A stretch of DNA of 63,999 nucleotides, counting the filler, from Candidatus Woesearchaeota archaeon (GTDB lineage: Archaea; Nanobdellota; Nanobdellia; Woesearchaeales; B72-G16): assembly GCA_003650545.1 (NCBI GenBank). It is 3 parts of 3 records of this genome, joined end to end, with 100 filler letters (N's around TTAATTAATTAA, not from the genome) between each part and the next. Parts side by side here need not be neighbours in the genome. Positions count along the whole stretch, not along the records: positions 30,955 to 61,212 come from QMQO01000016.1; 2 more parts are not named here. One strand, written 5' to 3'. The notes under the pieces were generated by a model, which was not told the DNA's origin, did no database searches, and saw nothing but the letters and a program-made list of their open reading frames with translations. The first letter of the stretch is position 1; every line of letters begins with the position of its first letter. The position numbers and the translations under genes are program-made. Below, piece after piece: positions 36,201 through 57,684 of the stretch.

Positions 36201-36986
36201 ATGATAGCAATCTTTGAGGCTTTTGTATTAGCAATTGTTCAAGGCATTACAGAATGGTTGCCTGTTAGTAGTTCTGGACATCTTGCTTTAATTGAGAATA
36301 TATTTGGTATAGCCGATCCTGTATTTTATTCTGTTATGTTACATTTTGCAACGTTGTTTGTTGTGATTGTTGTGTTTTGGAAGGATGTCGTCAGAATCCT
36401 TAAAAGCTATTTTATTGGTGACACAGAATATCAAAAGTTAGGATTACTAGTGCTATTATCTGTCTTGCCCACTGCTGCGATTGGATTCGCTTTTATGAAG
36501 TACTTTGAGGCTGCCTATACAAACTATTTCACTATTGCAGCCGCGTTTTTTGTAACAGCAATATTATTAATGTTCTTCAGATTTGCAACTGAGAAGAGAA
36601 AGAAGGTTTGTGTTGTTGATGCACTAGTTGTTGGTGTTGCACAGGGAATTGCGATTATACCTGGTATATCAAGGAGTGGTGCAACAATTGCTACTGGAAG
36701 GTTTCTTGGTTTAAGGAGAGAGATAGCTGCTAAGTTTGCATTCTTAATGTTTATACCTGCAATCATTGGGGCAACAGGCTATCAGATGATATACAGGTCA
36801 GAAGAAATCGCCTATGCTACTACTGATTGGGGTGCATTGATCCTTGCTATGATTACAGCAGCTGTTGTTGGATATTTTGCATTGAAGTTTGTGTTAAGAA
36901 CGATAAAAAGGAATGCATTTCATAAGTTTAGTTACTATTGTTTTGCGGTTGGTGTTGTTAGTTTGATTTTGGGATTAGCTTTATAG
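36201..36986 (+). CDS. uppP: Undecaprenyl-diphosphate phosphatase
   Basis: QGITEWLPVSSSGH and PGISRSGATI. Confidence 0.95.
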   Translation: MIAIFEAFVLAIVQGITEWLPVSSSGHLALIENIFGIADPVFYSVMLHFATLFVVIVVFWKDVVRILKSYFIGDTEYQKLGLLVLLSVLPTAAIGFAFMKYFEAAYTNYFTIAAAFFVTAILLMFFRFATEKRKKVCVVDALVVGVAQGIAIIPGISRSGATIATGRFLGLRREIAAKFAFLMFIPAIIGATGYQMIYRSEEIAYATTDWGALILAMITAAVVGYFALKFVLRTIKRNAFHKFSYYCFAVGVVSLILGLAL

Positions 36987-39436
36987 CTTAGAAAGAGTTT
37001 ACCCCACGGCGTTTTGTTAAACTTTCCTATTCTTAGTTTGCCGACTGTAGGATACCAAAGTTTGTCGTGGTAAAACTCTGAAGCAAATATAAACATCCTG
37101 AATAAAGGTGTATGAAAGAATAAATGTTCTGCAAATCTTAATCTTTTTCTGAATAATTGATCAAAGAATATAACAGGACTTTTGAAGGTTTTGAATCTTA
37201 AGTTGATATTTTTTATTGAATCTCCTACAACGTCTATCTGCCTCAGATCGGCCGTTCCAAGACCTTGGTCGTGTGCTAGTTTTAAGAACTTTATCTTCAT
37301 TGGATCAAAACCCATTAGCTTGGCTGCAACAGCATCAATTGCAGCCTGATCTTCGCTAGCAAGGATTAGATTTGCTGTTACAGGTAACATTGTCCTTGGG
37401 CCTTTGCCATTGCCTGCTACAGTGCCATCCATCACTGCAAATAAGTTTGGATGAATGTCTTTCTGTATTTTTAGTATGTCAACTAGAACTTCGTGGATCA
37501 TTTTATGGCAATGGTGTCTGCGTGTTGTGACAAGGCCTCCGAAAGCATTTTTGATCGCACCTGTCATTACAGTGTGGCCGTGTGTGTTATGAAGTAGTAT
37601 CCCATTTCCAATAAAATTATGTGATTTTTCGAGCACAGTAATATCGTATAAATCTGTTTTCTTTTCAATATTTGTAATTTCTACGATATCCTCCCAAATT
37701 AATGCATTATCTAGTAAAAAATCTAAATAACTAAAATCATCAGGGTTATAATTTCCTAATAAGATTAGCTTATAACGTAAGGCATTAACTAAGTACCTAA
37801 AACTTTTTCGTGGAATCCGTTTTTTATAATATATTAAACTCTGCCAAAATCTATTTCCCCGGGCTCTTCTATCAAAAGGATTTGAAAGTTTGGGAAGTTT
37901 TTCAAAAAAATGTACAATCTTTTCTTTATGTATAGGTATAAAATCATAGTTAGTGGTAAAATCATTCTTTCTTTTGTTGATATTCTCCAATAATTCATGA
38001 AGTTTCTTTTTATTTTTTGATTTTCTAAATTCAGGCTTTAATTTATTCAACTTAATAATATCGTCAGCATAAATTGATAAAGTAAAAACGTCCTTGTATT
38101 TGTGTTGCTTTCTTTTTTTTGAAAATGCAACGACACCTATTCTTTGGAACAGCAGTTGCATCAGTTTGGCATCATTTTCATTTGTCGTAGTTATATTTAT
38201 CTGTCGCGATTTTGGTATGATAGATCCGTCACAATCTATATATGTAACTAAAAAATTTACGATTTCTTCTTTGGTACACGAATATATAAAACTAGGGATT
38301 TGCTTTTTATTATTCAACAAGACACCCAATTGTTTTAAAACATCCACTAATTGTTTGGAATGTACAAATAATTCATGTTTATTGCTTCTTTTGGATCTAA
38401 ATTTTAAACCAAAGATATCTTTAGTTATTCTTTTAAAATCGCTTAACAGTTCATCAGAATAATTTGTAAAGTGAATTGCATAGTTCTTATTTTTTCTATT
38501 CTCTATGCTTCCTTCACTAACAATATATGCAATCCACCGACATAATTCAGGTGAACTTCTTTTTGGATATGTTATTTTATTATGGGATTTTTTAATTTTA
38601 ATCTTTTTTAAATTTATTTTAATTCTCCTTTCTCTAAAAGACGAGATTTCTCTTAAAACGGCAATCTTATGTTGCTTCTTATTTAATTTCTTCGCTTTAA
38701 CCCAACCTTCCTGTGTTAAAAACGGGTGTTCTGCTGAAACAATTACTTCTTTTCCTGTCTTAAGCCTTATCTTATAGATTTTACCTTTAGATTTATTTCG
38801 CCAAACTATTGCCTTTACATATTTCGTTCTTTTCTGTTTAGTTCCTACAAATGTTAAAACGCGATTTTTGAATGATTTCTTTTCTTCCTTTTTTTCTAAA
38901 TTAGGTTTACCAAACATATCTTTGATTCTTATTAAACCTCTACTAGTTGAAATCAAAGTGTCCCCATGTACACATTTCATTGTTGGCAGATGCATGATGT
39001 TTTTACCTATAAACATCTCTGGAATTTTGTATGTGTCACCAAAGATGTGATGTAGTGCTATGGAATCGTTTAATTTGTAGTTGATCCATTTGACTGTTGT
39101 TAGGTCTATTAGTTTTAGATCTGCTTTGCTTAGGATTGGTTTCCATCTATTACCCCTTTCGCCTTTTCTGACGTCTGTCACAACGGTTCTGTTTTCGACT
39201 GGATAGAGTTTCTTAAATTTGTCTTTTTTAAGCTTGTTTAAAACTCCTGCGAGTTGCCACGGTTGTGTTGAGCATGCAGGGAAGTATAAACTCCAGGATA
39301 GATTAAGTTTAAGGATAAGGTCTTTTGAGGGCTTTAGTTTATGTTTATATTTTGCTAAGTCTAAAAGTTTAGAATAGTCTTCTAATACTGTTTTAGGTGT
39401 TGTTCTTAAAACTGCAACTTTACTTGCTTTAGGCAT
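36935..39436 (-). CDS. DUF362 family protein interrupted by an intein
   Basis: LKLNLSW, LPTMK/THGHT..TGAIKNAFGG, GKGPR, DQAAIDAVAAKLMG; extein 370 aa. Confidence 0.88.
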   Translation of the reverse strand: MPKASKVAVLRTTPKTVLEDYSKLLDLAKYKHKLKPSKDLILKLNLSWSLYFPACSTQPWQLAGVLNKLKKDKFKKLYPVENRTVVTDVRKGERGNRWKPILSKADLKLIDLTTVKWINYKLNDSIALHHIFGDTYKIPEMFIGKNIMHLPTMKCVHGDTLISTSRGLIRIKDMFGKPNLEKKEEKKSFKNRVLTFVGTKQKRTKYVKAIVWRNKSKGKIYKIRLKTGKEVIVSAEHPFLTQEGWVKAKKLNKKQHKIAVLREISSFRERRIKINLKKIKIKKSHNKITYPKRSSPELCRWIAYIVSEGSIENRKNKNYAIHFTNYSDELLSDFKRITKDIFGLKFRSKRSNKHELFVHSKQLVDVLKQLGVLLNNKKQIPSFIYSCTKEEIVNFLVTYIDCDGSIIPKSRQINITTTNENDAKLMQLLFQRIGVVAFSKKRKQHKYKDVFTLSIYADDIIKLNKLKPEFRKSKNKKKLHELLENINKRKNDFTTNYDFIPIHKEKIVHFFEKLPKLSNPFDRRARGNRFWQSLIYYKKRIPRKSFRYLVNALRYKLILLGNYNPDDFSYLDFLLDNALIWEDIVEITNIEKKTDLYDITVLEKSHNFIGNGILLHNTHGHTVMTGAIKNAFGGLVTTRRHHCHKMIHEVLVDILKIQKDIHPNLFAVMDGTVAGNGKGPRTMLPVTANLILASEDQAAIDAVAAKLMGFDPMKIKFLKLAHDQGLGTADLRQIDVVGDSIKNINLRFKTFKSPVIFFDQLFRKRLRFAEHLFFHTPLFRMFIFASEFYHDKLWYPTVGKLRIGKFNKTPWGKLFLSYKANPKIKLTTPTAKQ
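37586..38974 (-). mobile_element. Intein (463 aa) with LAGLIDADG homing endonuclease
   Basis: Starts CVHGDT, block B VSAEHPF, IAYIVSEG and TYIDCDGS, ends LLHN before Thr. Confidence 0.93.
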
Positions 39437-40409
39437 TTTCAGTTATATTCTCTACAACTACTTTTACTGATTTAACATGAGCACATCTTAAAATGATTGT
39501 AGCCATAATCAAACTAATTGCAATGGTTATTATGCGAATCAATAAAAAGCAGACAACGACTGCATTGAAATCAATATTGAAGAGGCCGGTGATGGTTAAT
39601 ATGGTTGCACCATCTGCTATTCCAATTCCGGCTGGAGTTGGGGAGATTGTGGATGAAAATCCCAGTATTAAGAAAGCAATGCAAACTGCAAAAAAACTAA
39701 TATGGATGTTAAATGCCCAGAAAATTGCCTGAAACATTAATAAATCAACTGCTGTTGCTATAAATGTAACAATAAAAACAAAAAGTGTTTTATGTTTTAT
39801 TTCTCTAGCACCATCACTAACATGCTTCATTGGCTCTATGCAATATTTATGAATAAACCTCCAACGTAAGATTTTCTTTAGGTAATCCCATGATTTCTTG
39901 TAGAACAACAATATTAACAACAGAGTTATAAGACCAAATATGATCGCAATTGTGTGTGCGAATGCGCCTAGCGAATGGTAGATAACCAAAAAACCAAGAA
40001 TGCCAAAAAGCAATGTTGTGTATGGCTCAATAACTCCCCGGTCCAGGAAGATCAAGCCAGAAAACTTTTTGTTTCGTCTATATTTTTTTACAAGGAGTGG
40101 AGCAAAATCACCAAATCTTCCCGGAAAGATGATTGCGCCAATGCGTGATATGCCAAAGGCCTTTGACAAGTCTGTAGATTTAATCTTATGCTTAAGCCAG
40201 TGATGCCATTTCCAGAGACGTATTAAGACTGAGAGTACCATAAGCATCGCTGAGATGACAACGAAAAAAATTAAATTGAATAGATTGGTGCTCCCAAATA
40301 AGTTTTCAAGTGCTTTTAGGTCTAAATTTTTAAAGATAAAGTAAAATATGAATGCTGCAATTATCCAGCCGATTGTTGTTATAATGGTGTTTTTCTTGCC
40401 AAGTCTCAT
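39429..40409 (-). CDS. Flippase-like (UPF0104) membrane protein
   Basis: WKW, PGRFGD, DR, TPAGIGIAD; multiple TM. Confidence 0.82.
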   Translation of the reverse strand: MRLGKKNTIITTIGWIIAAFIFYFIFKNLDLKALENLFGSTNLFNLIFFVVISAMLMVLSVLIRLWKWHHWLKHKIKSTDLSKAFGISRIGAIIFPGRFGDFAPLLVKKYRRNKKFSGLIFLDRGVIEPYTTLLFGILGFLVIYHSLGAFAHTIAIIFGLITLLLILLFYKKSWDYLKKILRWRFIHKYCIEPMKHVSDGAREIKHKTLFVFIVTFIATAVDLLMFQAIFWAFNIHISFFAVCIAFLILGFSSTISPTPAGIGIADGATILTITGLFNIDFNAVVVCFLLIRIITIAISLIMATIILRCAHVKSVKVVVENITENA

Positions 40410-40622
40410 TTTTTGAAATGATTTTCTTTTTTTTTTAATTCCACGTTGCGATAAAAATTTTGTGGATAGGCTGATTTGGAATAAATATAAAATATGCTAA
40501 CTAGCATTGAGCTCTTTTGATTTTTGGTGATGGAATATAGTCTTGTTGCAAAGCCACAAAACCAAAAACCAAAGGGTTTGCTTTTATACCTTGGGTAGTT
40601 TTATTATATATAAATATAAATA

Positions 40623-40636: not shown

Positions 40637-40659
40637 TGGTTCTTTCTTCAAGAGTTATA

Positions 40660-40771
40660 GGACGGTCATAGGGGCGTGGTTCCACCCGATCCCATTTCGA
40701 ACTCGGAAGTTAAGCACGCCTCCGTTCCATGTTGTACTGTACTTATGTACGGGAAGCATGGAAAGCTGTCC
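40660..40771 (+). rRNA. rrf: 5S rRNA (unlinked)
   Basis: GGACGGT/GCTGTCC terminal helix, CACCCGATCCCATTTCGAACTCGGAAGTTAAG core, T-run after the end. Confidence 0.95.
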
Positions 40772-40860
40772 GCTTTTTTTTCGGTCTTTTAATTTTCATA
40801 AGTTTTATATACTTGCTTATCTACATGTTTTATATTGACAACAGAAAAAAGTTTCTTATA

Positions 40861-44193: not shown

Positions 44194-45348
44194 ATGGATT
44201 CGATAGAAAAAATCATATTAAAATACAATCAATTGAAAGCAGTTGTTAGAAGACAAGGATATATTGCTACTTTACTAAAGTTAAAGAGTGCACCAGACCT
44301 TAGTGATAAAATATTTGAAGAAATCAATAGTAATATCAATATTGATGAATTGTGTGAACTAATTGAAGGTCTGCGTGGTAGTGGAAAATTTTGGGAAAGA
44401 ATTAGAACACTAGAAAATTACTCTTTATTATCAGACAAACATTTTTCTAGGAATAGAAAATTAAAAAAGACTGCTGAAGACCTGCTTTCAAAATGGAATT
44501 ATAGGGTTGATCCAGATCGTTTTTTTCAAACATTATTTACTTTAAATAAGCTAGGTTTAAGACCAACACAAAATACAATAGATGAACTTTTTGAATACTT
44601 TCTTGTAGGGGTTAGTCCAGATGTAGAACATTTGGCTTTATTAAGTAAGGCAGGACTTAAACCCAGCAGAAAGATTGATGAATATGTAGAAGATATGTTC
44701 GGCAGCCTCATGTCAATGGATGAAGAACATAAACCAGAACCTGAAGAAATCGTAGAGTTATTTGAAAGGTTAGGTCTTAGACTAAAAAGTAAATATATCC
44801 AAGATACATTAGAACATGATATACATATTAGTATCGATACATCATATGCATCATGTCATTGGGAAAAAAGAACTCCTAAACTTGATTTGAGAGCCTATGC
44901 AATCTTTTATGAACTAGGATATAAAATCAAATTGTCTAAGGAATTATATCAACTATTAATAGCTAAATTTAATCTGAAGTATAAACAAAAAATAGCTATA
45001 TATTATGAGGAGTATAGAGAAAGTATAGAATCATCTGAATACAAAAATGTTTCAGATAGATATGATGACTATTATGATTCTAGAGGATTTTATGCTGACG
45101 CTAGGTCTCACGTGCAAGCTGCATTTATAGATGATATTGAAAATTTAGCTGCATTACACAAACTATCAAGGAGAAAAGTGAAGCTTGATAAAAAAAGCTT
45201 AGATATTATGTACTGGTCACTTATACCGGCTCTAGTAAGGGTAGATGGAGCCTCTGTAATTGATCGATTAGTTGAGATAACAGGAATACAACCTTCGAAA
45301 AGAATAAGAAATGAGATTATTGAGTACTATGAAGAGCTCTATCATTGA
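44194..45348 (+). CDS. Hypothetical helical-repeat protein
   Basis: 384-aa ORF with recurring L.KLGL.P-type units. Confidence 0.7.
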   Translation: MDSIEKIILKYNQLKAVVRRQGYIATLLKLKSAPDLSDKIFEEINSNINIDELCELIEGLRGSGKFWERIRTLENYSLLSDKHFSRNRKLKKTAEDLLSKWNYRVDPDRFFQTLFTLNKLGLRPTQNTIDELFEYFLVGVSPDVEHLALLSKAGLKPSRKIDEYVEDMFGSLMSMDEEHKPEPEEIVELFERLGLRLKSKYIQDTLEHDIHISIDTSYASCHWEKRTPKLDLRAYAIFYELGYKIKLSKELYQLLIAKFNLKYKQKIAIYYEEYRESIESSEYKNVSDRYDDYYDSRGFYADARSHVQAAFIDDIENLAALHKLSRRKVKLDKKSLDIMYWSLIPALVRVDGASVIDRLVEITGIQPSKRIRNEIIEYYEELYH

Positions 45349-46128: not shown

Positions 46129-46836
46129 CTAGAATTTGCCTTGTTTTTTCTGCAATTTAATGAAGCGTTCTACATGTGGAATATCATCCTTACAGCCAAA
46201 ATCCAGCCAATAGTCCTTCAGCTTCAACACCTTAACCTGGCCTTTCTCAGCCAAAAGTGTGATAGCATCTGTTAGCTCATACTCGCCACGCTCTGAAAGC
46301 TTGATCTGATCTAATGCTTTAAAGATCTCTGGAGTGAATTTATACAAGCCAATGTTGATTAAATCGCCTACAAATCTTTGTGGTTTTTCGACGATCTTTT
46401 TGAGAAAAACACCGTCTGTTAAAAGGACACCATAGTGTTCAGGATTCTTGTGGCGCATGCCAATAACATAGTTGTAATAATCCGGCTTTTTTAGCTGCTC
46501 AAGGTCTGCTACAGAGAAAAGATTATCCCCGCCAAGGACAACAAAGTTCTCATTGCCTGCAAAATCACGAGCAAGCTTAACAGCATGACCTGTACCAAGC
46601 TGCTCATCTTGAATAATCACTTCTGCTTTAATTGCATACTTATCAAGGAACTCGTTTATCTTCTCCTTTTTGTAGCCAGCGATGATTGCAATGCCTTCAA
46701 AACCGGCTTTTTTGAGGTTCTGAATAACGTAGTAAAGAAAGGGTTTACCGTCTATATCAATTAATACTTTTGGGGTATTCTCTGTTAAAGGGAGCATTCT
46801 TGTGCCTTTACCTGCTGCCATTATTATTACCTTCAT
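46129..46836 (-). CDS. Sugar-phosphate nucleotidyltransferase (RmlA/GlmU-N-like)
   Basis: IMAAGKGTRMLPLT..PK, QDEQLGTGHAV, GD, VEKP, SERGEYELTDAI. Confidence 0.93.
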   Translation of the reverse strand: MKVIIMAAGKGTRMLPLTENTPKVLIDIDGKPFLYYVIQNLKKAGFEGIAIIAGYKKEKINEFLDKYAIKAEVIIQDEQLGTGHAVKLARDFAGNENFVVLGGDNLFSVADLEQLKKPDYYNYVIGMRHKNPEHYGVLLTDGVFLKKIVEKPQRFVGDLINIGLYKFTPEIFKALDQIKLSERGEYELTDAITLLAEKGQVKVLKLKDYWLDFGCKDDIPHVERFIKLQKKQGKF

Positions 46837-47223
46837 TTTAGCACCATTATGCATTTGGCCTTAAAAAGCCTGTTTGAGCCTCTGAATCAGCATATTTATC
46901 ATCTGAGCTCACTTCTTCAGACTAAAAGCCTCTTTCCTCGTTGTTTTTTCATTCTTGAACACCTTTAAAAGTTCCTCTTGCGTTCCTTAATAAAGCTTCC
47001 TATTTTAAGTCTCACTTTTACTATAGCAAAAACCTTAGTAGATAAACTCTAAAATTAGAGTAATAAATGAGAAAAAGCAGGGAAAACCATGAAAAAGATA
47101 ATTTTGATTTATATGGGCTGAAAAACACCCTATTTTGAGGGATTTACGCCCCTGCATAAGTCTCACTTTTCCTTCATAAATCGCTAACAAAAGGTTTATT
47201 AAGGGGCCCTTAATTTTATTATT

Positions 47224-47802
47224 ATGCTAAGGATTTTTAAAAAGAGGGAGACCTGGGAAAGGATTGACCGATATATAAAAAATGCTTTTGAGCGCGTGAA
47301 ATCTGACATTCATCATATTTATTCTTGGATCAACTATCTTAAGCATAAGGATGAATTAAATGATCATGAACATTCTCAATTTAATAGGGAACTAGGCGAG
47401 CAAAAGATGATGATTCAGTATGTATTGTCTAGGATTGAACAGCTAGAATCAGCCAGCATCCCTAGACAGAGGACAAGTCAAGGACAAATAAAGGACACAT
47501 CAAGGACATTTAGGGGACAAATAGGGGACATTAAAGGACACGTAAAGGACACACATTTAGTGGCTAAAAAAAGCGATCTGACTGGCGCTCAGATGGAGTT
47601 ATTGCAGTTGTTTTACCATTCTGACAGACCCCTTAGCTATGATGAGATTTCTAAAAGATTACAGAAAAAACCGAAGAGCATTCGCAATCTAATCTATGAA
47701 ATAAGGGATAAAGGAATAGAGATAAAAGACAAACCAATAGGTATCAGAGAGAAAGGATTCTACATTGACAGGGATTTAAAGATCGAACTTTCTGGAAGGT
47801 GA
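47224..47802 (+). CDS. Coiled-coil plus C-terminal winged-helix protein with internal DNA repeats
   Basis: N-terminal coiled coil, repeat-encoded linker, LTGAQMELL..LSYDEISKRL.KKPKSIRNLIYEIRDKG wHTH. Confidence 0.8.
   Translation: MLRIFKKRETWERIDRYIKNAFERVKSDIHHIYSWINYLKHKDELNDHEHSQFNRELGEQKMMIQYVLSRIEQLESASIPRQRTSQGQIKDTSRTFRGQIGDIKGHVKDTHLVAKKSDLTGAQMELLQLFYHSDRPLSYDEISKRLQKKPKSIRNLIYEIRDKGIEIKDKPIGIREKGFYIDRDLKIELSGR
47471..47551 (+). repeat. Phased GGACA array (8 copies, 10-11 bp period)
   Basis: GGACA at 47471, 47482, 47493, 47504, 47515, 47526, 47536, 47547. Confidence 0.92.
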
Positions 47803-47806
47803 TGTC

Positions 47807-47903
47807 TGTCCCAGAGGACATAAGGACATGTCCCTAAAATAAAGGACAAAAGGACATAAAAAGAGGACAAGTCGGGACATCTCAAGGACACATGAAAAGG
47901 ACA
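47807..47903. repeat. Second GGACA cluster (8 forward, 2 inverted) in intergenic DNA
   Basis: GGACA at 47816, 47824, 47844, 47852, 47865, 47875, 47886, 47899; TGTCC at 47807, 47829. Confidence 0.9.
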
Positions 47904-47911
47904 AAAAACAT

Positions 47912-48421
47912 TCAGAGTAGAGATTTAATGTAGCTTGCCAGTATCTTAGCTGTATTTTTGACATTTTTTGTGAGATCTGTTACTAAAACATTATGGCCAA
48001 GCTCCTTTGCCTCATTTAAACAGACCTGCATAACCTCAGAATCCATGTTTTCTTGGATTTTAGGCAGGGAATATCCTCTTTTCTTTAGGCGTTTATAAAG
48101 AATTTTTAAATGACAGGTCGTGACTATACATAAACTCACTTTTTTACTAGACAAATAGTGAGAAAGATGACTATCTACAATAAAAATGCCTCTTTTTTGG
48201 GACTCTATATAGCCCGAAAGGGCCCTATTTAGTGCTTTTGGGTCCACTATATAGGCCTTTTTAGCGCTATCATAACCCTCATGTAATCGGCTTTTCTTGA
48301 TAAATTTTGTCACATCTATATGTTTTGCATGTAGCAAAAGTGAGAGTTCCCTAGCTAGTGTTGACTTGCCTGTACAGGGTGTCCCTGTAATAGCCACTAT
48401 GAAATGCTTGATTTTTGCCAT
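47912..48421 (-). CDS. Adenylate kinase, AK6/Fap7 type
   Basis: ITGTPCTGKST, VDSHLSH, RLKKRGYS..KIQEN. Confidence 0.88.
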   Translation of the reverse strand: MAKIKHFIVAITGTPCTGKSTLARELSLLLHAKHIDVTKFIKKSRLHEGYDSAKKAYIVDPKALNRALSGYIESQKRGIFIVDSHLSHYLSSKKVSLCIVTTCHLKILYKRLKKRGYSLPKIQENMDSEVMQVCLNEAKELGHNVLVTDLTKNVKNTAKILASYIKSLL

Positions 48422-48703
48422 TTTAAGCCTTAGTTCTGCTGAATTTTTGTTGTTTGACTAAATAGCAGGTTTGTGAAGGATGTATATATAGCTATTTGTT
48501 ATGCCTAAAATGTATCTAAAATGTTAATCTAAAATAATGCTTTTACACAGAGTTGAGATGTTACAAAAGTGAGATTAGGCACCATTAGATTAGTTGTTTT
48601 TTAAATATAGCTTATCGTCGATAAATTGTAAATCTTTAAGTCGTGTTAAAATACATTTAAATAGCGTTTGGTTTAGTAGCCACTCTTAAGTGGTCAAAAA
48701 AAC

Positions 48704-48717
48704 GAAAAGTTTATATA
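48704..48717 (+). promoter_or_regulatory. BRE-TATA promoter upstream of the structured transcript
   Basis: GAAAAGTTTATATA matches the recurring promoter motif. Confidence 0.6.
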
Positions 48718-49001
48718 ATATTTAAGTTAACATTATTACTATTATCAAAGGTTGTTATTTGGGTTTTTACATCTTTCCCTAATCGAAAAGAGGGACTGTG
48801 AGTAAAAACTCATGCTATGTTTCCAGAAGGAAACAAATCTTGCAAATTTGCTACGAGAAAATCGAGCAAATAATAAAGAAACTTGAATAGGAATAACATA
48901 TCTAGATGGAAAACCATTAGTTTTAGGTAGTTTAAAGTTTTCTTAATAACCCTCTTGCTAGGGTTTTATATATTTGTATTTCTATAAAAAGGAGGCAAAT
49001 T

Positions 49002-49472
49002 ATGAAGAATTTTTTTGTCATTATGTTGTGTTCGGTAATTATTAACCAGAAGGTTAATTACTCTATGATTCCAGAGGAGGTACGCGTAAATCGCGTACCG
49101 GTTATATCATGGCAGGAAAGTCTGGGTGGCGAGATAGGCACAGCCTATTCTTGCGAGGACAAAGAAGAATGGTTCTGGACACTAGATGAAAATGTTGTGG
49201 TGGACTGTCTAAATAGTTCTACAATGGTCCACCTCTCCAGGACTTCTGCTACTGCTACTCTGGGGGTAAGCAGCAATGAGTTTGGCATCCTCTGGATAAA
49301 GTCTGATGAAGAAGTTGCTTTTATTAGGCTGGGGGAAAAAGAAGTAAAAGTGAAGAATTCTCCCTGCCTGTTTTCCTCCATTCACAAAGTTGTAGATGAT
49401 CTAGAAAGAGGAGGGACTGTGAGTGAAAACTCATGGTCATTACTCCTCGGAGCATCTCTAAGTCATTTTTAA
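49002..49472 (+). CDS. Hypothetical protein encoded within strongly base-paired sequence
   Basis: 156 codons, AGGAGG SD at 48990, hydrophobic N-terminus; unusually G+C-rich and self-complementary. Confidence 0.5.
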   Translation: MKNFFVIMLCSVIINQKVNYSMIPEEVRVNRVPVISWQESLGGEIGTAYSCEDKEEWFWTLDENVVVDCLNSSTMVHLSRTSATATLGVSSNEFGILWIKSDEEVAFIRLGEKEVKVKNSPCLFSSIHKVVDDLERGGTVSENSWSLLLGASLSHF

Positions 49473-49481
49473 AATCAAATT

Positions 49482-49542
49482 AGCAGGGCATAACTTGGTG
49501 ACGCTTCATAGAAGCGGCAGGGTTCGATTCCCTGGCCTGCTA
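49482..49542 (+). ncRNA. tRNA-like element lacking canonical D and anticodon arms
   Basis: AGCAGG/CCTGCT acceptor-like stem, CAGGG-TTCGATT-CCCTG T arm, CGCTTC-ATA-GAAGCG hairpin. Confidence 0.6.
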
Positions 49543-49680
49543 TAGTTGAAATACTTTGGCAAGAGTAACTAACAATAACTAACAACTTTTTATAAATTGT
49601 CTGTTTTTAAATAATCGAGAAGTCATAAAACTTTTTTAATAATTTTTTTCTATATCGAAATTTCAAAAAGAACATTAAAA

Positions 49681-51600
49681 TCACTTCATCTTCAAATAAA
49701 CACCAGCAGCATGCTTCTCGTATTCGCTGATAGCTTTCTCTGCCTTGGCCTTCTTGCCTGCCTTTGTCCTGCCATCCATCTTCTTAGTATTTTCTTTCTT
49801 TATCTCTTTTTGTGCTTTCTTTAACTGTTCCTTTTCTTTTTTTGTGACCTTCTTCATTCTTCTTATCCTGATGGCGCGCCTGATCATTAATTTCCCTAGG
49901 TAGTTAGCACGAATAAGTTTATGCGCTATTATTACCAAAATCAAGGAAACTGTTGCATATATTACTAACAGTAAAACGTCATTTAACATGTTCTTTAATG
50001 GTGTTGGAGGTATGAAAATGATAGATTTCTTTAATAGCTCACTACCAATTATAAACGGGTTGTAAGATTTAACAAAATTGTATAAATACAAAGGCATAGA
50101 CTCAATTGGAATTAATAGGTCTGACAATAAGAATAACAAACTGCCAACAGATATTGCTGCTAGCACAGAGGTTTCCTCTGATTTAAACAAGTAACCAATA
50201 AGCATTCCTAGAAAGATAAACAAAGATGTAGTAACGAATAAAATAAGACAGATGTTTATCCAATTATTCAGAAAATTAAGCTTGAATACTGTAACAGAAA
50301 CGCCTAAAATTATGGCTAGTTGCAAAGCTATGATTATAAGGCTAGTTAAATAAGTTGCTATTATAAAAGTTATGTCGCGAGTTGGAACAATGTAGTTTCG
50401 GAAATGTGCTGGTGATTTCTTTTCTATCATCACCAATGTTGTTGCTAATAGGATTCCTATGAACATAACAACAAGTATTATTATAGAGGGCATCTTCTTT
50501 TTTAGATAGGTCTCCTTAGCGGCAATCTGATTTACTTTTGTGGTGAACGGACTAACAATAACATCTGCTCTGGTAATTTTTATTTGACCTATAGACTCTT
50601 TTAAGTTGGTTAATTTTTTCTGAATGTCTGATATCTTGTTGTTTATTGAGCTAATGCTATCAATTGTCTTGTTTAAACTGGATATTGCTTCTGTTCTTGT
50701 ATTTTCAATGTTATTAAATTGCGATTGCACAACATTTAATCCTGTATTTAGGTTATTAACCAGCCGAGAGAGAGAACTTCCATTATTGTTAGAGAGTTCT
50801 GTCTGAAGAACTAGAACTACTGTTCTCGTGTCATTTAGATCGTCTAATAAGGCTTGCTCTTCTGATGCATTAAGACAGAAATCATCAACATCATCTTCAA
50901 GTTGCTCTATCATATCTAAAGTGTCTTCAACGACACTGTCAGCAGCTTTTGTCAAGGATTGAGATTTCTCTTTTATCTGTGAAAGGTTGTATGCGTTTGG
51001 ATCAAATTCTGTGTTGATTGATTTTAGATTTGTAATTACCTTTCCTAGGTCTACTTTAAGTTGGTTATTTGACTCTATTAAGGATGATAACTGTGCGTTT
51101 TGTGCATCTATTGTAGATTTTGTTTCTTCTAGCTTTGATAATAGTATATTTGTTAAGGATATACTTTGTTGACTTGACTTATTCATAATTGTCTTAGATA
51201 TAAGATTACCAATGGTATCAACTAAAATTAAATTAGAAGAGTCTACATGATAGATTAGCTCAACTTTTCTCTCGTTGCTTACTTCTAATGTTGCAGGTAA
51301 TTCCACACAAGCATGTATATCATTGTCGCGGATTTTCTCAATACAATCTTCTATATCTGTAAATTTAACTATATTTACATTTTCTGCTCTAAATGCCTCT
51401 AAGAATTCTTCTGTTTGGTTTGAGTATGACTCTGAATAAATTCCAATCTTAATGCTAAATGGATTGGCATTGTTAAAAGCGAGGCCCATAAGAAAGATGA
51501 TTAATAACGGCCCAAAAATAACTATTAGAGCAGATGTTTTTGAACGTAATAAAATCTTAAAGTTCTTTTTTATTATTTTAAACAGATTAATCATTTTCAA
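49681..51600 (-). CDS. ABC-2 type transporter permease with large extracellular coiled coil
   Basis: N-terminal TM, long helical loop, C-terminal TM bundle with LLIPIESMP. Confidence 0.88.
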   Translation of the reverse strand: MKMINLFKIIKKNFKILLRSKTSALIVIFGPLLIIFLMGLAFNNANPFSIKIGIYSESYSNQTEEFLEAFRAENVNIVKFTDIEDCIEKIRDNDIHACVELPATLEVSNERKVELIYHVDSSNLILVDTIGNLISKTIMNKSSQQSISLTNILLSKLEETKSTIDAQNAQLSSLIESNNQLKVDLGKVITNLKSINTEFDPNAYNLSQIKEKSQSLTKAADSVVEDTLDMIEQLEDDVDDFCLNASEEQALLDDLNDTRTVVLVLQTELSNNNGSSLSRLVNNLNTGLNVVQSQFNNIENTRTEAISSLNKTIDSISSINNKISDIQKKLTNLKESIGQIKITRADVIVSPFTTKVNQIAAKETYLKKKMPSIIILVVMFIGILLATTLVMIEKKSPAHFRNYIVPTRDITFIIATYLTSLIIIALQLAIILGVSVTVFKLNFLNNWINICLILFVTTSLFIFLGMLIGYLFKSEETSVLAAISVGSLLFLLSDLLIPIESMPLYLYNFVKSYNPFIIGSELLKKSIIFIPPTPLKNMLNDVLLLVIYATVSLILVIIAHKLIRANYLGKLMIRRAIRIRRMKKVTKKEKEQLKKAQKEIKKENTKKMDGRTKAGKKAKAEKAISEYEKHAAGVYLKMK

Positions 51601-52614: not shown

Positions 52615-55600
52615 CTATTGTTTTTCTGCAACAGACACTGCTTTTCTTATCTCATCAAGAGCGTCGATATTAACAGAGATAGAATCTATTCCTTGCTTTA
52701 CCAAGAAACGGGCCATTTCAGGGCGAGAGCCAGCTTGGCCACAAATAGAGGTTTGAACACCGTGCTTCTTGCATGTTTTGATAACTAGAGCTATCTCGCT
52801 TAGGATAGCTGGATGGAGCTCATTGAATAGTTTTTGGATGCGTTCATTGTTCCTGTCTACTCCTAGAGTTAACTGAGTTAGATCATTTGTGCCAAAAGAA
52901 ATAAAGCTTATACCTTCATTGCAGATATCTTCAATTATCCAGCACGAAGCTGGAGTTTCTATCATGACACCAAAATCGACATCTTTAATAGGCTCTAAAC
53001 CACAAGAACGCATTATGGCCTTTGCTTTCTTGAGTTCTTCTGTTGTAATAAGAAATGGTATCATCACGCCAACATTTTTAAGGCCTACATCATGCAGCCG
53101 TTTTATTGCAGTGAACTCTGCCTTTAGAATTTCTGGTTGATCTAATGCGCGCCTAATAGCATGCCAGCCAATCATCGGGTCAGTTTCTTTGGGTTCATTT
53201 TCAGCGCCTTTAAGGTTACGATACTCGTCTGTACGCATATCACTAGTTCTTACCCAGACTGGTTTATCCTTAAATGCACGGGCTATTTTTCCTATTCCAT
53301 CTACTAGCATCTGGATGTAGGGTTCAAAGTTACCGTCTTTAAGATAGTAAGCGGGGTGAACGCCTGATTGGGCAATCATTATTTCTAAACGCACTAGGCC
53401 AACACCATCTGCTCCTGTAGCAGCAGCGCGTTCTGCAAATTTTGGAAGGTCCATTATTAACTTAATTTTTGTTTTTGTTCTTGATGGTTCTGCTTCTTTA
53501 ATCTCAACTTTTTTTTCTTCGATTACCTTTCCTTTGTAGATTTTTCCATGGGTTGCATCAACTGTTACTATTTCGCCCTCTTTTAACAGCTTGGTGGCTT
53601 TTACTGTGCCAACAATACACGGAGTGCCCATCTCTCTAGAAACTATTGCTGCATGGCAGTTAGCTACCCATACAGGAGTTAAATTTCTAGTAAAGACTAC
53701 AAAATTATGATTATCCTCAACTGTTAAATTATAAACTTCTGTTTCAGGCAGAGAATCTACTTGGCTTACCCTTTTCATTCTAAGAGGAGAACTAGCTATT
53801 TGACGTAATTTTACACCATCTTTGTATTTAGCTAATTTGCTGATACGCTCAAGGATTTTATTATTAATTAACAAATTATTATCCACATATGGTCTTATTT
53901 TGCCTTTCACATTTACGTCATTTATTATATCAGAGAGTAATTGCTTCGCTGAAAACAACTTGACACCAATAGCCTTAGTCTTATTAGTTGGCTTAAATCG
54001 CTGACTGTGTTTTAACACTTTTTCTATTTTCTCTGTTATTTGGATATTTTTACATTTTAGTCTATTATCATTTATCACAGGCTGTATACCTAACCGTAAA
54101 CACCCTAAAACTATGGCTTGAATCAAAATTTCGTCTGAGGTATAAATATGAACTCTATTTCCGTGTTTTTTGTGAAAACTGCCGTCTCCGTCTATTACTC
54201 CTGATAAAAATGCACAAATATTCTCTTCATCAGTCTCCATTATCCAAGGTATTAAATTTTCATACTTTTCTAATAGAATCTGTGAAGGTGATTTCAAAGA
54301 ATAGGTGTAAGCGTTCGCAGCATTTGCAATGCTAGTAAATCTATGTCCCCTTATGATAGAAGTATTATTTCTAGTCCGAACTTTTAAATCATAATTGAAC
54401 AAATCCTTAAAATTTTTAACTACTTGGTTTATAAATTTTCTTTTTTGCTCTGTATTTTTCTGGACAAAAGCAATTCTACCACGACGTCTATTTAACTGAA
54501 TATGGCCATCTGTATAGATCGCTCCAATCAAATATGATAGTTTATTTTCTTTTTCATTTGATTTAACGATATCAGGTATTTTGTCGATAGTAGAGATAGC
54601 TAAATTTTTATCTAAAACTTCATTAATTGGCTTTTTACATAACATTCTATTTTCGAATAACATCATCTTATGATCCTGGGTTAAATCTAGGGTATTTGTA
54701 GAACTCCTACCTGTTTGGGACACTGAAATTCTTATGATTTGGGCTATGCGTTTATGTGAAGCAATAACATCTTTCCATTCTGGTTTTAAATGATTGTTGA
54801 GGGTAAGAACTTTAACCTCTTCATCTTTCTGTAGTGATTTGTAAATTTGGCTTATCTCTTTAATACCATTGGATGTTAGTACTTTTGTATAAGATGGAAA
54901 ACACGTTGCTCCTCCCTCATCAGTTATTATTGCAGCTGCTTTTTCCATTGCAGGAACCATGTCAGGCGTTGTCATCCTTGTAACCATTACATCACCTGGT
55001 TGAATCTTGCTCAATTCGCTAAGAGAATAGATGATTTTAATAGGACCTGTTGCTAGACCGCGGGATGCCACTTGACCTGTTAGAATAACTTCGCCCTTTA
55101 GCTCTTCCACTGCTTTTACTTCTTTTTTCAATGTTGTAACGGCCCTTGATTGTACGATATAGATGTTTCCCTTTTCAATTGCCCATTCAATATCCTGAGC
55201 CTTGTTATAGTGTTCTTCGATCTTGCAAGCGTATCTTGCAAGCTCTTTGATCTGTTTATTGTTGATCACTTGGCTGCTTTTGTCAGGATCTGTTATAGGA
55301 CGTTTCTCTGTCTTACCTGTTTCTGGATTACGAAAAAAACCCCATTCTTGTTCTCTTACTGTTATGTTTGTTATCTCATTTGTTTCTTTATTGACTTCGT
55401 AATGATCTGGGTTGACTGCACCAGAGACTATCGCTTCTCCTAGTCCATAAACTGCTTCCACAATGACTGTATTCGGATCGTTTGTAGCAGGATTCACAGA
55501 GAACATCACTCCTGACATATCGCTGTCTACCATTTTTTGAATAACAACGGCTATATAGACCTTAGAATGATCGAACTTATTTCTGACGCGATAATAGATA

Positions 55601-57684
55601 GCTCTTGCTGTAAATAAGGATGCCCAGCATGCTGAGACAGCCCTTATGAGTTGTTCCCTGCCGCGAACATTTAGAAATGTTGCTTGCTGGCCTGCAAAGC
55701 TTGCAGAATTGTGAGTAACTATACCTCCAACGCCTGCTGCAAAATTTTGAGATTCAGGTACAACAAAATCATATACCCACCCATCATAGTTTATTGGTTC
55801 TATTTTTTTTATTTTATCCCAAGTAACTGAGTCGTTAAAAATATCTAAATTTTTTGTCCCATATTTATTTAAAACAGATATAAGTTTATCTACACTATAG
55901 GTCTTACTTGCTACTAAACCTTTATTCCAGGGTGTTGATCCTTTTGTAAACTTTCCTTTCTCATCGTAATTAACATAATACAGTTTTCTTGATTTTTTAA
56001 CCTGATCTGAATAAAAAGCCTTTTTGCACTTGTGGCAGTAGTACCTCTCTCTTTCCCTATATCTGCTTGTTTGGTTTATCTTCATGTTACATGATGGGCA
56101 CAAGATAACTTCAACTTCTGTTTTAGGAAGATTCAACTCTATATCCTTTCTTATTTTTTTTGCTAATAGCTTTGATATCTTCCAAGAATTTTTAAATCTT
56201 GGATGTGTGTTCATTTCCTTATATTTATTAATCAACTTCTGGAGCCTCATAAGCTTAGATTTATTATTAAATCCAATTAATATTCCGAATTTCTTTGCTT
56301 GACTTAAAGGTATAACAATGTTGGTTTTGTTTTTAGCTAGGTAGAATTCTATGCCTAAAATCTCTAATAGTTTTACAATTCCTCCTATCAACATCTCTGA
56401 AGTAGAACAATATTCAATAGTCTGTTTAGAAACATAACCATCTCCGTCAAAGCATCCTCTTAAGAATTGCCCTATCAAATCTTTACTCCAACCGAAAATG
56501 AAGTTTGGCACTTCTTTTACTTTGCAAATCTTGCCTTTGCCTGTTATTTTATTATTGGGTTTACCTGCGATTTTATGTAAGAACCGTACAAAAGATTTGC
56601 AGTATATTCTTAATGTCCCCCTGTTTATATTTTGGGATTTATACAAGTTTAGACTAGCAAAAAATTCTATTATTCTTTGCATAACCTCTTTGCTGCTATT
56701 GGTTATTGTGATACAGTTATCTTTATATGTAGAACCTTCTGCAGCGTACACACCTAAGAAGTAAGCAAAACCAGAATCAACTGTTAATTCTGGAATAAGG
56801 CCATTTTGGATCTTCCAGTTGTTGTTTGGATTCTTTATTTTGATTAATCCGTCATCAAGAACTACATCATTTTCTGTTAAATAGTCTAGAAATGATAGTT
56901 TTTTTTGCTTTAATGATGATGGTAGAGGTAGCTTATTTACTACTGGGACTCTTTCGTTGCCTTTTAGCTCATTAACGGACGCAACTTCTCTCTGTTCAAG
57001 AGAAGTTTCGTCCAATACTATTAGTGTGTGATTAGGAGAAATCGTTATTTCTCTTCCAGTTTCGGTGATTAGTTTATACAGCTTGGTTTTGTTAGCTTTA
57101 TGTCTATAAATTTCCTTTACTTTGCTCCATTTGATTTTATTGTTACATAACGAAGGAATTAGTATGTTGTAATCATTTCCTTTACCTACTAAGTTATAAA
57201 CTTCTTTCATTTTTTTATATATTATATTGTTATCTATTTGCACTAATACATGTTCATCTTCAGATATACTGGGCAGATCCTCGGCTGTTGCTGATGATCT
57301 AACAGCTACAAACTCTTCCTTTTTGTTATCTAGCATCTCTTGCGGGTGTACATTATTGCCTAAAGAAAGGGCTTCATAGGCTTCTATTATTTCTGCCTTA
57401 AGCTCAGGGAGCATCTCTGTGTTTATGATTAAATCCTGGATCTCTTTGGCAATCTCCTGTAGTTTTGCTGTGTTTTGTGTATCAAGATTTTTTAATCTGT
57501 TTAGAATCTCATCCTTGATGTTTGTTTTTTCTATAAACTCTTTATAAGCTGAAGCTGTTACAACAAAGCCTGGGGGAATTGGTAAGCCAGCATTATACAT
57601 CTCGCCCAGGTTGGCGCCTTTTCCGCCAACTAAAGAGATGCTATCTTTAGAAAGTTCCTTAAACCATGCGATGTATTTCAACAA
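52615..57684 (-). CDS. ppsA: Phosphoenolpyruvate synthase with two inteins
   Basis: VGGKGANLGE, AVRSSATAEDLP/SASFAGQQ, GGAT/CHAAIVSRE, FGTNDLTQ, SICGQ; extein 753 aa. Confidence 0.95.
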   Translation of the reverse strand: MLKYIAWFKELSKDSISLVGGKGANLGEMYNAGLPIPPGFVVTASAYKEFIEKTNIKDEILNRLKNLDTQNTAKLQEIAKEIQDLIINTEMLPELKAEIIEAYEALSLGNNVHPQEMLDNKKEEFVAVRSSATAEDLPSISEDEHVLVQIDNNIIYKKMKEVYNLVGKGNDYNILIPSLCNNKIKWSKVKEIYRHKANKTKLYKLITETGREITISPNHTLIVLDETSLEQREVASVNELKGNERVPVVNKLPLPSSLKQKKLSFLDYLTENDVVLDDGLIKIKNPNNNWKIQNGLIPELTVDSGFAYFLGVYAAEGSTYKDNCITITNSSKEVMQRIIEFFASLNLYKSQNINRGTLRIYCKSFVRFLHKIAGKPNNKITGKGKICKVKEVPNFIFGWSKDLIGQFLRGCFDGDGYVSKQTIEYCSTSEMLIGGIVKLLEILGIEFYLAKNKTNIVIPLSQAKKFGILIGFNNKSKLMRLQKLINKYKEMNTHPRFKNSWKISKLLAKKIRKDIELNLPKTEVEVILCPSCNMKINQTSRYRERERYYCHKCKKAFYSDQVKKSRKLYYVNYDEKGKFTKGSTPWNKGLVASKTYSVDKLISVLNKYGTKNLDIFNDSVTWDKIKKIEPINYDGWVYDFVVPESQNFAAGVGGIVTHNSASFAGQQATFLNVRGREQLIRAVSACWASLFTARAIYYRVRNKFDHSKVYIAVVIQKMVDSDMSGVMFSVNPATNDPNTVIVEAVYGLGEAIVSGAVNPDHYEVNKETNEITNITVREQEWGFFRNPETGKTEKRPITDPDKSSQVINNKQIKELARYACKIEEHYNKAQDIEWAIEKGNIYIVQSRAVTTLKKEVKAVEELKGEVILTGQVASRGLATGPIKIIYSLSELSKIQPGDVMVTRMTTPDMVPAMEKAAAIITDEGGATCFPSYTKVLTSNGIKEISQIYKSLQKDEEVKVLTLNNHLKPEWKDVIASHKRIAQIIRISVSQTGRSSTNTLDLTQDHKMMLFENRMLCKKPINEVLDKNLAISTIDKIPDIVKSNEKENKLSYLIGAIYTDGHIQLNRRRGRIAFVQKNTEQKRKFINQVVKNFKDLFNYDLKVRTRNNTSIIRGHRFTSIANAANAYTYSLKSPSQILLEKYENLIPWIMETDEENICAFLSGVIDGDGSFHKKHGNRVHIYTSDEILIQAIVLGCLRLGIQPVINDNRLKCKNIQITEKIEKVLKHSQRFKPTNKTKAIGVKLFSAKQLLSDIINDVNVKGKIRPYVDNNLLINNKILERISKLAKYKDGVKLRQIASSPLRMKRVSQVDSLPETEVYNLTVEDNHNFVVFTRNLTPVWVANCHAAIVSREMGTPCIVGTVKATKLLKEGEIVTVDATHGKIYKGKVIEEKKVEIKEAEPSRTKTKIKLIMDLPKFAERAAATGADGVGLVRLEIMIAQSGVHPAYYLKDGNFEPYIQMLVDGIGKIARAFKDKPVWVRTSDMRTDEYRNLKGAENEPKETDPMIGWHAIRRALDQPEILKAEFTAIKRLHDVGLKNVGVMIPFLITTEELKKAKAIMRSCGLEPIKDVDFGVMIETPASCWIIEDICNEGISFISFGTNDLTQLTLGVDRNNERIQKLFNELHPAILSEIALVIKTCKKHGVQTSICGQAGSRPEMARFLVKQGIDSISVNIDALDEIRKAVSVAEKQ
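53659..54903 (-). mobile_element. Intein 2 of ppsA (415 aa, LAGLIDADG)
   Basis: Starts CFPSYT, TQDH, IGAIYTDG and LSGVIDGDGS, ends WVAN before Cys-His of the phospho-His loop. Confidence 0.92.
55708..57270 (-). mobile_element. Intein 1 of ppsA (521 aa, Ser1, LAGLIDADG, Zn-ribbon insert)
   Basis: Starts SISEDE, SPNH block B, LGVYAAEGS and LRGCFDGDG, CPSC..CHKC, ends VTHN before Ser. Confidence 0.9.

Follow-up and report, generated by a model that had tools for sequence, protein, structure and literature searches.

Self-encoded GGACA arrays as predicted binding sites of a winged-helix protein in a Woesearchaeales archaeon

Organisation of the locus

A 63,999-nt stretch of DNA from a Candidatus Woesearchaeota archaeon (GenBank assembly GCA_003650545.1), referred to below as the window, carries a gene for a 192-residue, putatively DNA-binding protein together with two arrays of the pentamer GGACA, one inside the gene and one beyond its stop codon (Table 1). 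The window consists of three contigs that were joined artificially, with N...TTAATTAATTAA...N spacers at positions 30855-30954 and 61213-61312; because these are contig joins, synteny across either spacer is an artefact. The locus lies on the middle piece, which is 30,258 nt long.

Table 1. Positions of the gene, its arrays and its convergent neighbour in the window (ORF, open reading frame; AF2, AlphaFold2; pLDDT, predicted local distance difference test)
Feature	Position	Strand	Evidence or remark
TATA-like box TTTATTAA	47195..47202	+	centre ~26 nt before ATG
Gene for 192-aa DNA-binding protein, uncharacterised DPANN family	47224..47802	+	ORF; predicted binder
N-terminal single long helix, residues 2-78	47227..47457	+	AF2 helix, pLDDT 96-98
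Internal array, eight GGACA one helical turn apart	47471..47551	+	doubles as linker-coding DNA (disordered residues 83-110)
C-terminal winged helix, residues 113-192	47560..47799	+	predicted recognition helix 150-162, KSIRNLIYEIRDK
3′ array, ten GGACA, two inverted	47807..47903	.	perfect palindrome GGACATGTCC at 47824-47833
Fap7/AK6-like kinase gene	47912..48421	-	AAA_18, 1.4e-24

The eight internal copies start at 47471, 47482, 47493, 47504, 47515, 47526, 47536 and 47547 on the plus strand, are spaced by 11, 11, 11, 11, 11, 10 and 11 bp, and all fall within the ORF; Tandem Repeats Finder reports 7.5 copies of an 11-nt period at 47470-47551. The ten 3′ copies, at 47807 (−), 47816, 47824, 47829 (−), 47844, 47852, 47865, 47875, 47886 and 47899, occupy the whole 109-bp gap to the convergent kinase ORF. 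A first-pass annotation, made from the sequence alone, had described eight in-gene copies at these spacings and ten more past the stop, two of them inverted, and the pattern search that gave the above positions reproduces that description exactly.

Over the whole window the total for GGACA is unremarkable, with 77 matches against 62.1 ± 7.8 in shuffled sequence and 4 of 100 shuffles reaching 77. Eighteen of the matches lie at the locus, and the remaining 59, counted on both strands, amount to 0.94 per kb. At this outside density the Poisson probability of at least 18 copies in 433 bp is 1e-23, and nowhere else in the window do three copies fall within 120 bp.

Conservation of the arrays as DNA

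A genome scan identified ten related loci (L001-L010) in ten assemblies of other DPANN genomes, encoding proteins 32-58% identical to that of the window. A GGACA array follows the stop codon in all ten (3-10 direct and 2-4 inverted copies). A second array occupies the linker-coding DNA, with 4-8 sense copies, in each of the nine loci that hold this part, L010 being cut at a contig end. Whether the linkers of homologues encode phased DNA repeats had been named beforehand as a check, and they do so in 9/9 cases, with the post-stop arrays in addition. Neighbouring copies are 10-12 bp apart in 44 of 49 cases in the internal arrays (10 bp 11 times, 11 bp 23 times and 12 bp 10 times) and in 23 of 46 cases in the 3′ arrays. 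Between them, the two arrays bracket the segment that codes for the winged helix-turn-helix (wHTH), at a distance of 241-390 bp from one another.

The order of elements in the 3′ array recurs as TGTCC-n4-GGACATGTCC-n3-TGTCC, a spacer and then 3-5 direct copies. The palindrome GGACATGTCC also ends the internal array in L003, L004, L006 and L007, where it is translated as (K/R/E)DMS, and begins it in L009. A perfect palindrome is present within the locus in 10 of the 11 loci; the only one of L005 sits 1.7 kb upstream. Over 149 units, the extended motif is R-GGACA-W-G-T-C, which occurs as GGACAAGTC 28 times and as GGACATGTC 25 times, and this motif is identical in the coding and the non-coding arrays. 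The identity of GGACATGTCC with a p53 half-site was put down to coincidence.

The linker peptide is itself conserved, with the motif GQ.GT.QGT..GQ..D.S, as a peptide repeat or low-complexity linker without a DNA function might be. Against this explanation, the 10-12-bp period runs through all three reading frames; in the window the frames of the internal copies are, in order, 1, 0, 2, 1, 0, 2, 0 and 2, and copies that cycle through the frames in this way do not form a peptide repeat. GGACA also fills the non-coding 3′ gap. Furthermore, a codon test was made on ten genes (the nine loci and the window), with columns picked by amino-acid conservation. Six conserved linker columns use one codon each (GGA 8/8, ACA 9/9, ACA 10/10, GGA 9/9, CAA 8/8 and GAC 10/10), that is, 54 of 54 codons without synonymous variation, whereas 35 of 35 other conserved columns use at least two synonymous codons. 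This difference places the constraint on the DNA. By the same codon evidence, the conserved linker peptide is best described as a by-product of that constraint, and comparison of the loci identifies the arrays as a DNA element conserved across the family. The earlier statement that the repeat is held as DNA and not as peptide is therefore borne out by frame cycling, by the arrays of the homologues and by the single-codon linker columns.

The same explanation in its other form, a plasmid or virus remnant, conflicts with the setting of the locus. Domain searches of the window ORFs show the middle piece to be ordinary chromosome, with genes for glycosyltransferases, BacA, an intein-bearing DUF362 protein, 5S rRNA, NFACT, an Lrp/AsnC regulator, a sugar nucleotidyltransferase, an ABC transporter, an intein-bearing pyruvate phosphate dikinase, PCMT, PfkB and Nop5. 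Neither plasmid nor phage records contained relatives of the protein (tblastn), no integrase lies nearby, and synteny is conserved across genomes. The housekeeping, chromosomal setting described in the first-pass annotation, free of integrase and viral genes nearby, is confirmed by these searches. In either form, a linker without DNA function or a remnant, this explanation is barely credible.

Two further readings of the repeat were discarded. Phase variation by slippage of 11-bp units does not fit units that are imperfect, with the core alone conserved, in an array that is stable across genomes. GGACA fits DRACH, and an N6-methyladenosine-type RNA motif was considered together with a weak MT-A70 match of ORF 44194-45348 (E = 0.051); the inverted and non-coding copies point to DNA. 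An RNA gene at the locus was likewise dropped, since Rfam gave nothing at E ≤ 1 for 46800-49750 and ARAGORN called no tRNA gene in the 64-kb window, in which the sole Rfam match is the 5S rRNA at 40658-40774.

Architecture and family of the protein

Under the spacing rule for archaeal promoters, the position of the TATA-like box suggests a leaderless mRNA. An AF2 model of the protein, built on a 57-sequence alignment (mean pLDDT 88), places a single long helix at the N-terminus and a winged helix at the C-terminus, formed by helices 113-118, 121-132, 139-146 and 150-162, strands 168-173 and 176-180, and helix 183-190. Residues 79-112 have no secondary structure and a pLDDT of ~53-60, and the array-coded residues 83-110 lie in this segment, the only disordered part of the protein. 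The model thereby supports the coiled coil, repeat-encoded linker and C-terminal wHTH that had been proposed before. Residue W35 in the N-terminal helix is nearly invariant, being present in at least 90% of sequences, and residues K148, K151, S152, I153, R154 and N155 are invariant. The N-terminal helix is presumed to be an oligomerisation module; a homodimer prediction for residues 1-82 scored 0.02, which counts neither way on oligomerisation.

Family searches placed the protein in no described family. Pfam gave sub-threshold HTH matches alone, to residues 118-171 (the best, HTH_Mga, reaching 18.6 bits where the cut-off is 23), and NCBIfam gave no family above its cut-off for the 192-residue protein. 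PHROGs returned phrog_323 alone (3.2e-5) and PADLOC only the wHTH part of a CARF model (1.5e-5), both of which were set aside as generic HTH similarity. Profile searches against PDB sequences matched the C-terminus to sigma region 4, the Csa3 wHTH and GerE, and the N-terminus to generic coiled coils alone.

Foldseek matches to the PDB are confined to the C-terminal 75-88 residues or columns and include MepR/MarR (4lll, E = 2e-4), the Lrs14-type AbfR2 (6cmv, 2e-4), SmtB (1smt, 2.7e-3), CzrA/ArsR and PerR. The comparison with RepA, Orc1 and DnaD that the first-pass annotation had suggested led instead to MarR, ArsR and Lrs14 regulators, and no Rep, O, Orc1/Cdc6 or DnaD protein is among the matches listed (ranks to 50). 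The wHTH fold is thus that of MarR/ArsR-type regulators. Membership of these families at the sequence level and their compact dimer architecture were not found, the Pfam matches being below cut-off and the model being of a helix, a tether and a wHTH.

A word-indexed search returned 23 homologues, named hypothetical and coming from Nanoarchaeota or Woesearchaeota, and 90 cluster representatives were found at E ≤ 1e-3 among 1.84 billion. Look-alikes in the Atlas are clusters from Nanobdellota that share no Pfam family. The protein family is a small one, confined to DPANN. No paralogue of the wHTH gene was found in the window or the related loci, and no longer or fused forms among 453 candidates, which is weak evidence. 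A sister group (P0056, P0068, P0073, P0081, P0085, P0100 and P0102) has only the N-terminal helix domain in common with the family; its C-terminal domain differs and contains a CGRTAFYDYL motif, and its linkers are rich in VRTKSEP-like words. This group may represent the same design with yet another half-site.

Co-variation of the repeated word and the recognition helix

For distant members of the family, 5-mers encodable by the linker peptides in any frame were counted by back-translation and not from DNA. A word found in one member was tested on the rest of its recognition-helix class against 500 residue shuffles. In the SIRN class (43 proteins) GGACA was encodable 257 times, against 84.9 ± 7.5 in the shuffles, and in the TxRN class (8 proteins) 55 times, against 19.8 ± 3.7. 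The word of the TVRR class (8 proteins) is GTTCA, with 51 against 18.0 ± 3.3, GGACA standing there at 7 against 7.1. Similarly, the TVKN class (24 proteins) has GACAC, with 38 against 22.3 ± 4.0, and GGACA at 25 against 32.3. In none of the four classes did any of the 500 shuffles reach the observed value of the class word. The class-defining residues lie within the model helix 150-162.

We read these counts as co-variation of half-site and recognition helix, which is the strongest indirect evidence here for direct binding. With the arrays conserved as DNA and the word tracking the recognition helix, the arrays are, on these comparisons of sequence, almost certainly the protein's own binding sites.

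Neighbouring genes and additional clusters

The kinase gene beyond the 3′ array matches PDB sequences 1y63, 1rkb, 3iij, 4cvn and 5jzv at 1e-14 to 1e-17; PRK03839 of NCBIfam matches it at 6.7e-26, yet with 91 bits against a cut-off of 152. The same kinase, in the same convergent orientation, lies past the array in 9/9 related loci with downstream DNA (L009 stops 189 bp past the stop codon). It is probably a conserved neighbour and not a functional partner.

On the upstream side the gene differs between loci, being NFACT in L002, L007 and L009, a nucleotidyltransferase in the window and L008, and PGM/PMM in L005, where a nucleotidyltransferase lies beyond it; in L006 an ArsR-type HTH/S-layer-like gene is the direct upstream neighbour, and a CofD-nucleotidyltransferase-HAD fusion lies farther out. 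Genes for sugar-nucleotide and envelope functions recur around the loci: NTP_transferase in the window (46129-46854), L002, L005, L006, L008 and L009, UDP-glucose dehydrogenase in L002 and L009, a GlmS-like gene in L006, PGM/PMM in L005 and glycosyltransferases in L002 and L003. This recurrence may be a matter of synteny or hint at a regulon.

An additional cluster, GGACATGTCC-taa-GGACA-tga-GGACA, is present in L002 at 2629-2654. It lies 7 nt before a TTTATAA box and 37 nt before the ATG of a 137-aa ORF without a Pfam family. From this placement it looks like a promoter operator, and the 137-aa ORF is a candidate regulon member; no homologue of this ORF was found in the window or any related locus. 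The cluster region (2629-2667) also sits at the stop of a nucleotidyltransferase gene. Less regular clusters occur in L003, L010 and L005, the last with a palindrome and three copies inside the PGM gene.

A different motif, AAGTCTCACTTTT, occurs four times in the window with at most one mismatch, against 0.26 expected, at 47007-47019 (+), 47158-47170 (+), 40401-40413 (+) and 48336-48348 (−). The wHTH gene is preceded by two exact copies at a distance of 151 bp from each other, and CTCACTTT-like elements are found upstream of the homologues in L001, L006 and L008. These elements may be promoter-proximal sites for another factor. The copy at 48336, which falls within the coding sequence of fap7, may be coincidental.

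Origin and barrier models

The first-pass annotation had proposed an origin or a segregation site that does not use ORB boxes. In the origin version the protein would be an initiator acting at its own gene, of the lambda O type or of the P1/F type. The direct phased repeats in the linker-coding part of a wHTH gene and the second block downstream accord with this idea, as do A-rich, Lys/Glu-coding stretches that follow the internal array in several loci. In phage lambda, direct repeats for a winged-helix protein likewise lie within the coding DNA of its own inter-domain linker, and in the iteron plasmids P1 (incC-repA-incA) and F two blocks of sites bracket the coding DNA of the binder. An array of direct repeats in or beside the binder's gene, as in the iteron-initiator class, is found here. 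Looping or handcuffing and titration are established for the P1 and F iterons. A further precedent for an origin within an initiator gene is oriV within repC of repABC plasmids, as described in excerpts of PMC3155836.

The differences from these systems are considerable. Ori-lambda combines four 19-bp iterons with a region rich in AT, and its O protein recruits a helicase loader; the present loci have 4-8 pentamers and a post-stop array, no sequence or fold link to O and no replication genes near, and they belong to an archaeal cellular chromosome. P1 and F have iterons of 19-22 bp and Rep proteins of known families with two winged-helix domains, whereas the present protein has no plasmid match and no Pfam family above cut-off. 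It has 192 residues, one wHTH and no ATPase. The absence of relatives from plasmid and phage records, and of Rep, Orc1/Cdc6 and DnaD from the listed fold matches, also counts against an initiator.

The genome context argues in the same direction. No Orc1/Cdc6, Rep, integrase, ParA/MinD, ParM or TubZ gene was found among the 54 window ORFs and 77 locus-flanking ORFs (40 + 8 + 29), and no MCM or primase gene is linked to the locus. An archaeal Orc1/Cdc6-ORB origin also finds no counterpart, as no Cdc6/ORC domain occurs in the same ORFs and ORB is unlike the 5-bp repeat core seen here. Neither GC nor keto skew changes sign at 47.5 kb, although the contig is short, skew follows gene strand and this evidence is weak; slopes on the two sides are +21 and +10 per kb for GC and +62 and +74 per kb for keto skew. 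The cumulative skew, which the first-pass annotation had wanted read for an inflection at the locus, shows none, with the same limit of a short contig. Minima of the cumulative skew at 29.7 and 31.9 kb, a V shape at ~30 kb, were rejected as an origin signal because a contig-join spacer lies there. The genes that flank the 3′ array converge on it, and right-side genes point at the array in the window, L001, L003, L004, L006, L007 and L008, an arrangement opposite to that of an origin. The gap filled by the array in L004, L006, L008 and L010 measures 66-80 bp and leaves no non-coding room for an unwinding element. With no skew change, no Orc1/Cdc6 or Rep, convergent genes, no unwinding room and a regulator fold, the initiator/iteron origin is not supported and is considered improbable.

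The convergent arrangement bears on a second model, in which loaded arrays form a protein-dependent barrier that stops RNA polymerases, replication forks or both between the convergent genes. The 3′ array exactly fills the convergent gap in the window, L002, L004, L006, L008 and L010, its direct repeats are polar, and the right-side genes point at it. Parallels exist in RTP or Tus at Ter sites beside their own genes and in TTF-I/Reb1 at repeated terminators; RTP is likewise a winged helix encoded beside its sites. The model leaves the internal array and the extra clusters elsewhere unexplained, and we know of no specific termination system in archaea. A barrier is judged quite unlikely as the function of the locus.

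Proposed function

The reading tentatively preferred here, at somewhat less than even chances, is a self-assembling complex on the protein's own gene that would provide autogenous, dosage-sensing control and serve as a binding sink, the protein being a regulator with few targets elsewhere. The winged helix would read the half-site GGACA within the extended form R-GGACA-W-GTC, with the palindrome GGACATGTCC as its strongest form, and the two arrays at its own gene would be the main binding locus of the protein. Joined by their N-terminal helices, protein units would line up along a single DNA face, in head-to-tail order where the repeats are direct and head-to-head where they form palindromes, and bound units probably bridge the internal and 3′ arrays to form a loop. 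A loaded internal array would stop RNA polymerase ahead of transcription of the DNA-binding domain, and the 3′ array would insulate the two convergent genes. In addition, some 18 sites would buffer free protein and keep it from its few other targets, for example the promoter-proximal cluster of L002. Such a complex may double as a chromosomal landmark, the two roles being compatible, as they are in plasmid ParR/parC and omega.

This reading is preferred because the arrays are conserved as DNA, the same motif is used in coding and non-coding arrays, and helix and word co-vary. It is also preferred for the fold, which resembles that of transcription factors, for the disordered, array-coded tether, for the L002 cluster and for the want of a paralogue in the window and the related loci.

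Known regulators provide partial parallels. MarR, ArsR and Lrs14 regulators (MepR 4lll, AbfR2 6cmv, SmtB 1smt) resemble the C-terminal 75-88 residues in fold, are sequence-specific, dimerise via helices around the wHTH and bind one or two promoter palindromes. In the present protein a disordered tether of ~35 residues connects the wHTH to a helix of 77 residues, and half-site arrays lie in the gene body and the 3′ flank. The wHTH proteins of the OmpR/PhoB type bind cooperatively and head-to-tail to direct repeats about one turn apart. They and BldC use 2-6 units in the promoters of target genes, as against arrays encoded in the protein's own linker here. For BldC, head-to-tail multimerisation on direct repeats is described in excerpts of PMC5859096.

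Several findings weigh against a self-assembling autogenous complex. The 3′ array lies past the stop codon and is unable to control the initiation or elongation of its own gene; it is also the larger and more elaborately conserved of the two arrays and suits a structural cis-site at least equally. The 15-26 sites per locus are far above the number that regulators normally use, and ~135 kb of flanking DNA contain only one clearly promoter-like extra cluster, that of L002. The start could be placed in 8 genes, and in 7 of these the preceding 120 bp contain neither GGACA nor TGTCC; the exception is L001, with two inverted GGACA copies. These seven genes therefore lack the operator in the own promoter that is usual for MarR/ArsR regulators, and classical promoter autoregulation is absent. 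Finally, residue shuffles also break peptide repeats, and part of the word excess could arise at the peptide level; the best word fits all three frames in P0064, P0070, P0079, P0089 and P0101, which argues against such an origin of the excess.

The same features can be read with the emphasis reversed, as a centromere-like or chromosome-organising landmark in which the protein coats the arrays as a partition or anchoring complex and autoregulation is a by-product. Such a landmark would account for 15-26 short sites one turn apart, in two blocks beside the binder's gene, at a chromosomal, single-copy locus that is passed on vertically and keeps its synteny. Units of both orientations occur together in an order that is conserved, the 3′ array lies between convergent genes, where a promoter would not be expected, and the long helix of the model would suit higher-order assembly. 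By analogy, the architecture of the sites appears to resemble that of parC, tubC and omega sites: R1 ParR/parC has 11-bp repeats, pBtoxis TubR/tubC 12-bp repeats bound by a wHTH, and pSM19035 omega 7-bp heptads in direct and inverted orientation. In these plasmid centromeres a small autoregulating protein binds cooperatively to numerous short units of both orientations, set at intervals of about one turn. The short phased repeats fit this site architecture, binding being suggested here by co-variation alone.

The parallel with plasmid centromeres is incomplete, since the present sites are partly coding, lie on an archaeal chromosome and have no linked ParM, TubZ or ParA, and no homology was detected. 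No gene for the cognate nucleoside triphosphatase of a plasmid-type partition system (ParA/MinD, ParM/actin or TubZ/tubulin) occurs among the 77 flanking ORFs or on the window's own middle piece; FtsZ, at 173-1246, is on another contig piece than the locus. The searches showed no relation to ParR, TubR, ParB or AspA in either sequence or fold. Bacillus subtilis parS within spo0J/parB and AspA of Sulfolobus pNOB8, an archaeal wHTH, show that an organiser's site can lie in or beside its own gene. Those systems use single palindromic sites with spreading, as opposed to ~18 half-sites without a ParB-type domain or ParA here. The only conserved neighbour is the convergent Fap7-like kinase, and the extra clusters near other genes suggest a regulator-like use. 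A landmark as the primary function is regarded as rather unlikely, and less probable than autogenous control.

In its most developed form, this idea becomes a DPANN-specific chromosome-maintenance module without a ParA-type motor or ORB boxes. The protein's docking sites would be written into its tether-coding DNA and its 3′ flank, one large looped complex per chromosome would mark it for segregation, anchoring or replication control, and the GGACA, GTTCA and GACAC subfamilies would behave like incompatibility groups. Such a module is a speculative proposal that we consider doubtful.

Implications

Cis-arrays with the gene of a cognate binding protein are a known kind of system; what is new is the dual-coding linker and the setting in an archaeal chromosome. 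Family-wide, the linker peptide appears to be dictated by the protein's own binding sites, a form of dual coding that appears to be undescribed. A full-text literature search found, in the portions of the sources that it returned, no account of this family or of self-encoded arrays in archaea. The case is a clean natural one, as the DNA of ~80 bp within an ORF stays fixed, without a synonymous change, in genes whose proteins are only 32-58% identical, and the encoded linker peptide is a tolerated by-product.

For an uncharacterised DPANN family, the co-variation offers a testable protein-DNA recognition code with three predicted helix/half-site pairs. The locus also points to a single conserved, high-occupancy landmark in the small chromosomes of Woesearchaeales-like archaea, in which replication control and segregation are, to our knowledge, essentially unstudied. 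If the locus were a centromere or replication-control site, it would be of a new kind for archaea. If it were purely autoregulatory, it would be a natural binding-site sink and roadblock built into a gene body.

Other features of the window

Beyond the kinase gene, a 1.26-kb stretch without a confident gene contains a 25-nt direct repeat with one mismatch, at 48790-48814 and 49411-49435, 621 bp apart. The first copy precedes ORF 49002-49472 and the second falls within the 3′-terminal part of that ORF, a 156-aa frame to which Pfam, PHROGs and PADLOC assign no family. The gap at 48421-49681 contains no homologue of the L001 ORF 7843-8790. A 61-nt tRNA-like element at 49482-49542 has a 7-bp acceptor stem, a GGTTCGATTCC T-arm and an 'anticodon' hairpin with a loop of 3 nt only (z = -2.5); it was called by neither ARAGORN nor Rfam.

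LAGLIDADG inteins are present in the DUF362 protein (36935-39436) and, as two intein regions, in pyruvate phosphate dikinase (52615-57684). Three further repeats lie elsewhere in the window. A 42-nt tandem repeat at 17261-17487 (5.4 copies, 90% matches) lies in an ORF with a ribosomal protein L31e domain and is a repetitive extension of that protein. AT-rich tandem repeats of 12-13 nt (AACCTAACTATA-like) occur at 28455-28552, in a gap of ~600 bp that precedes the Pth2 gene on the first piece. On the third piece, a 120-nt periodic repeat of ~13 copies at 62115-63786 corresponds to the TPR units of two adjacent TPR proteins.

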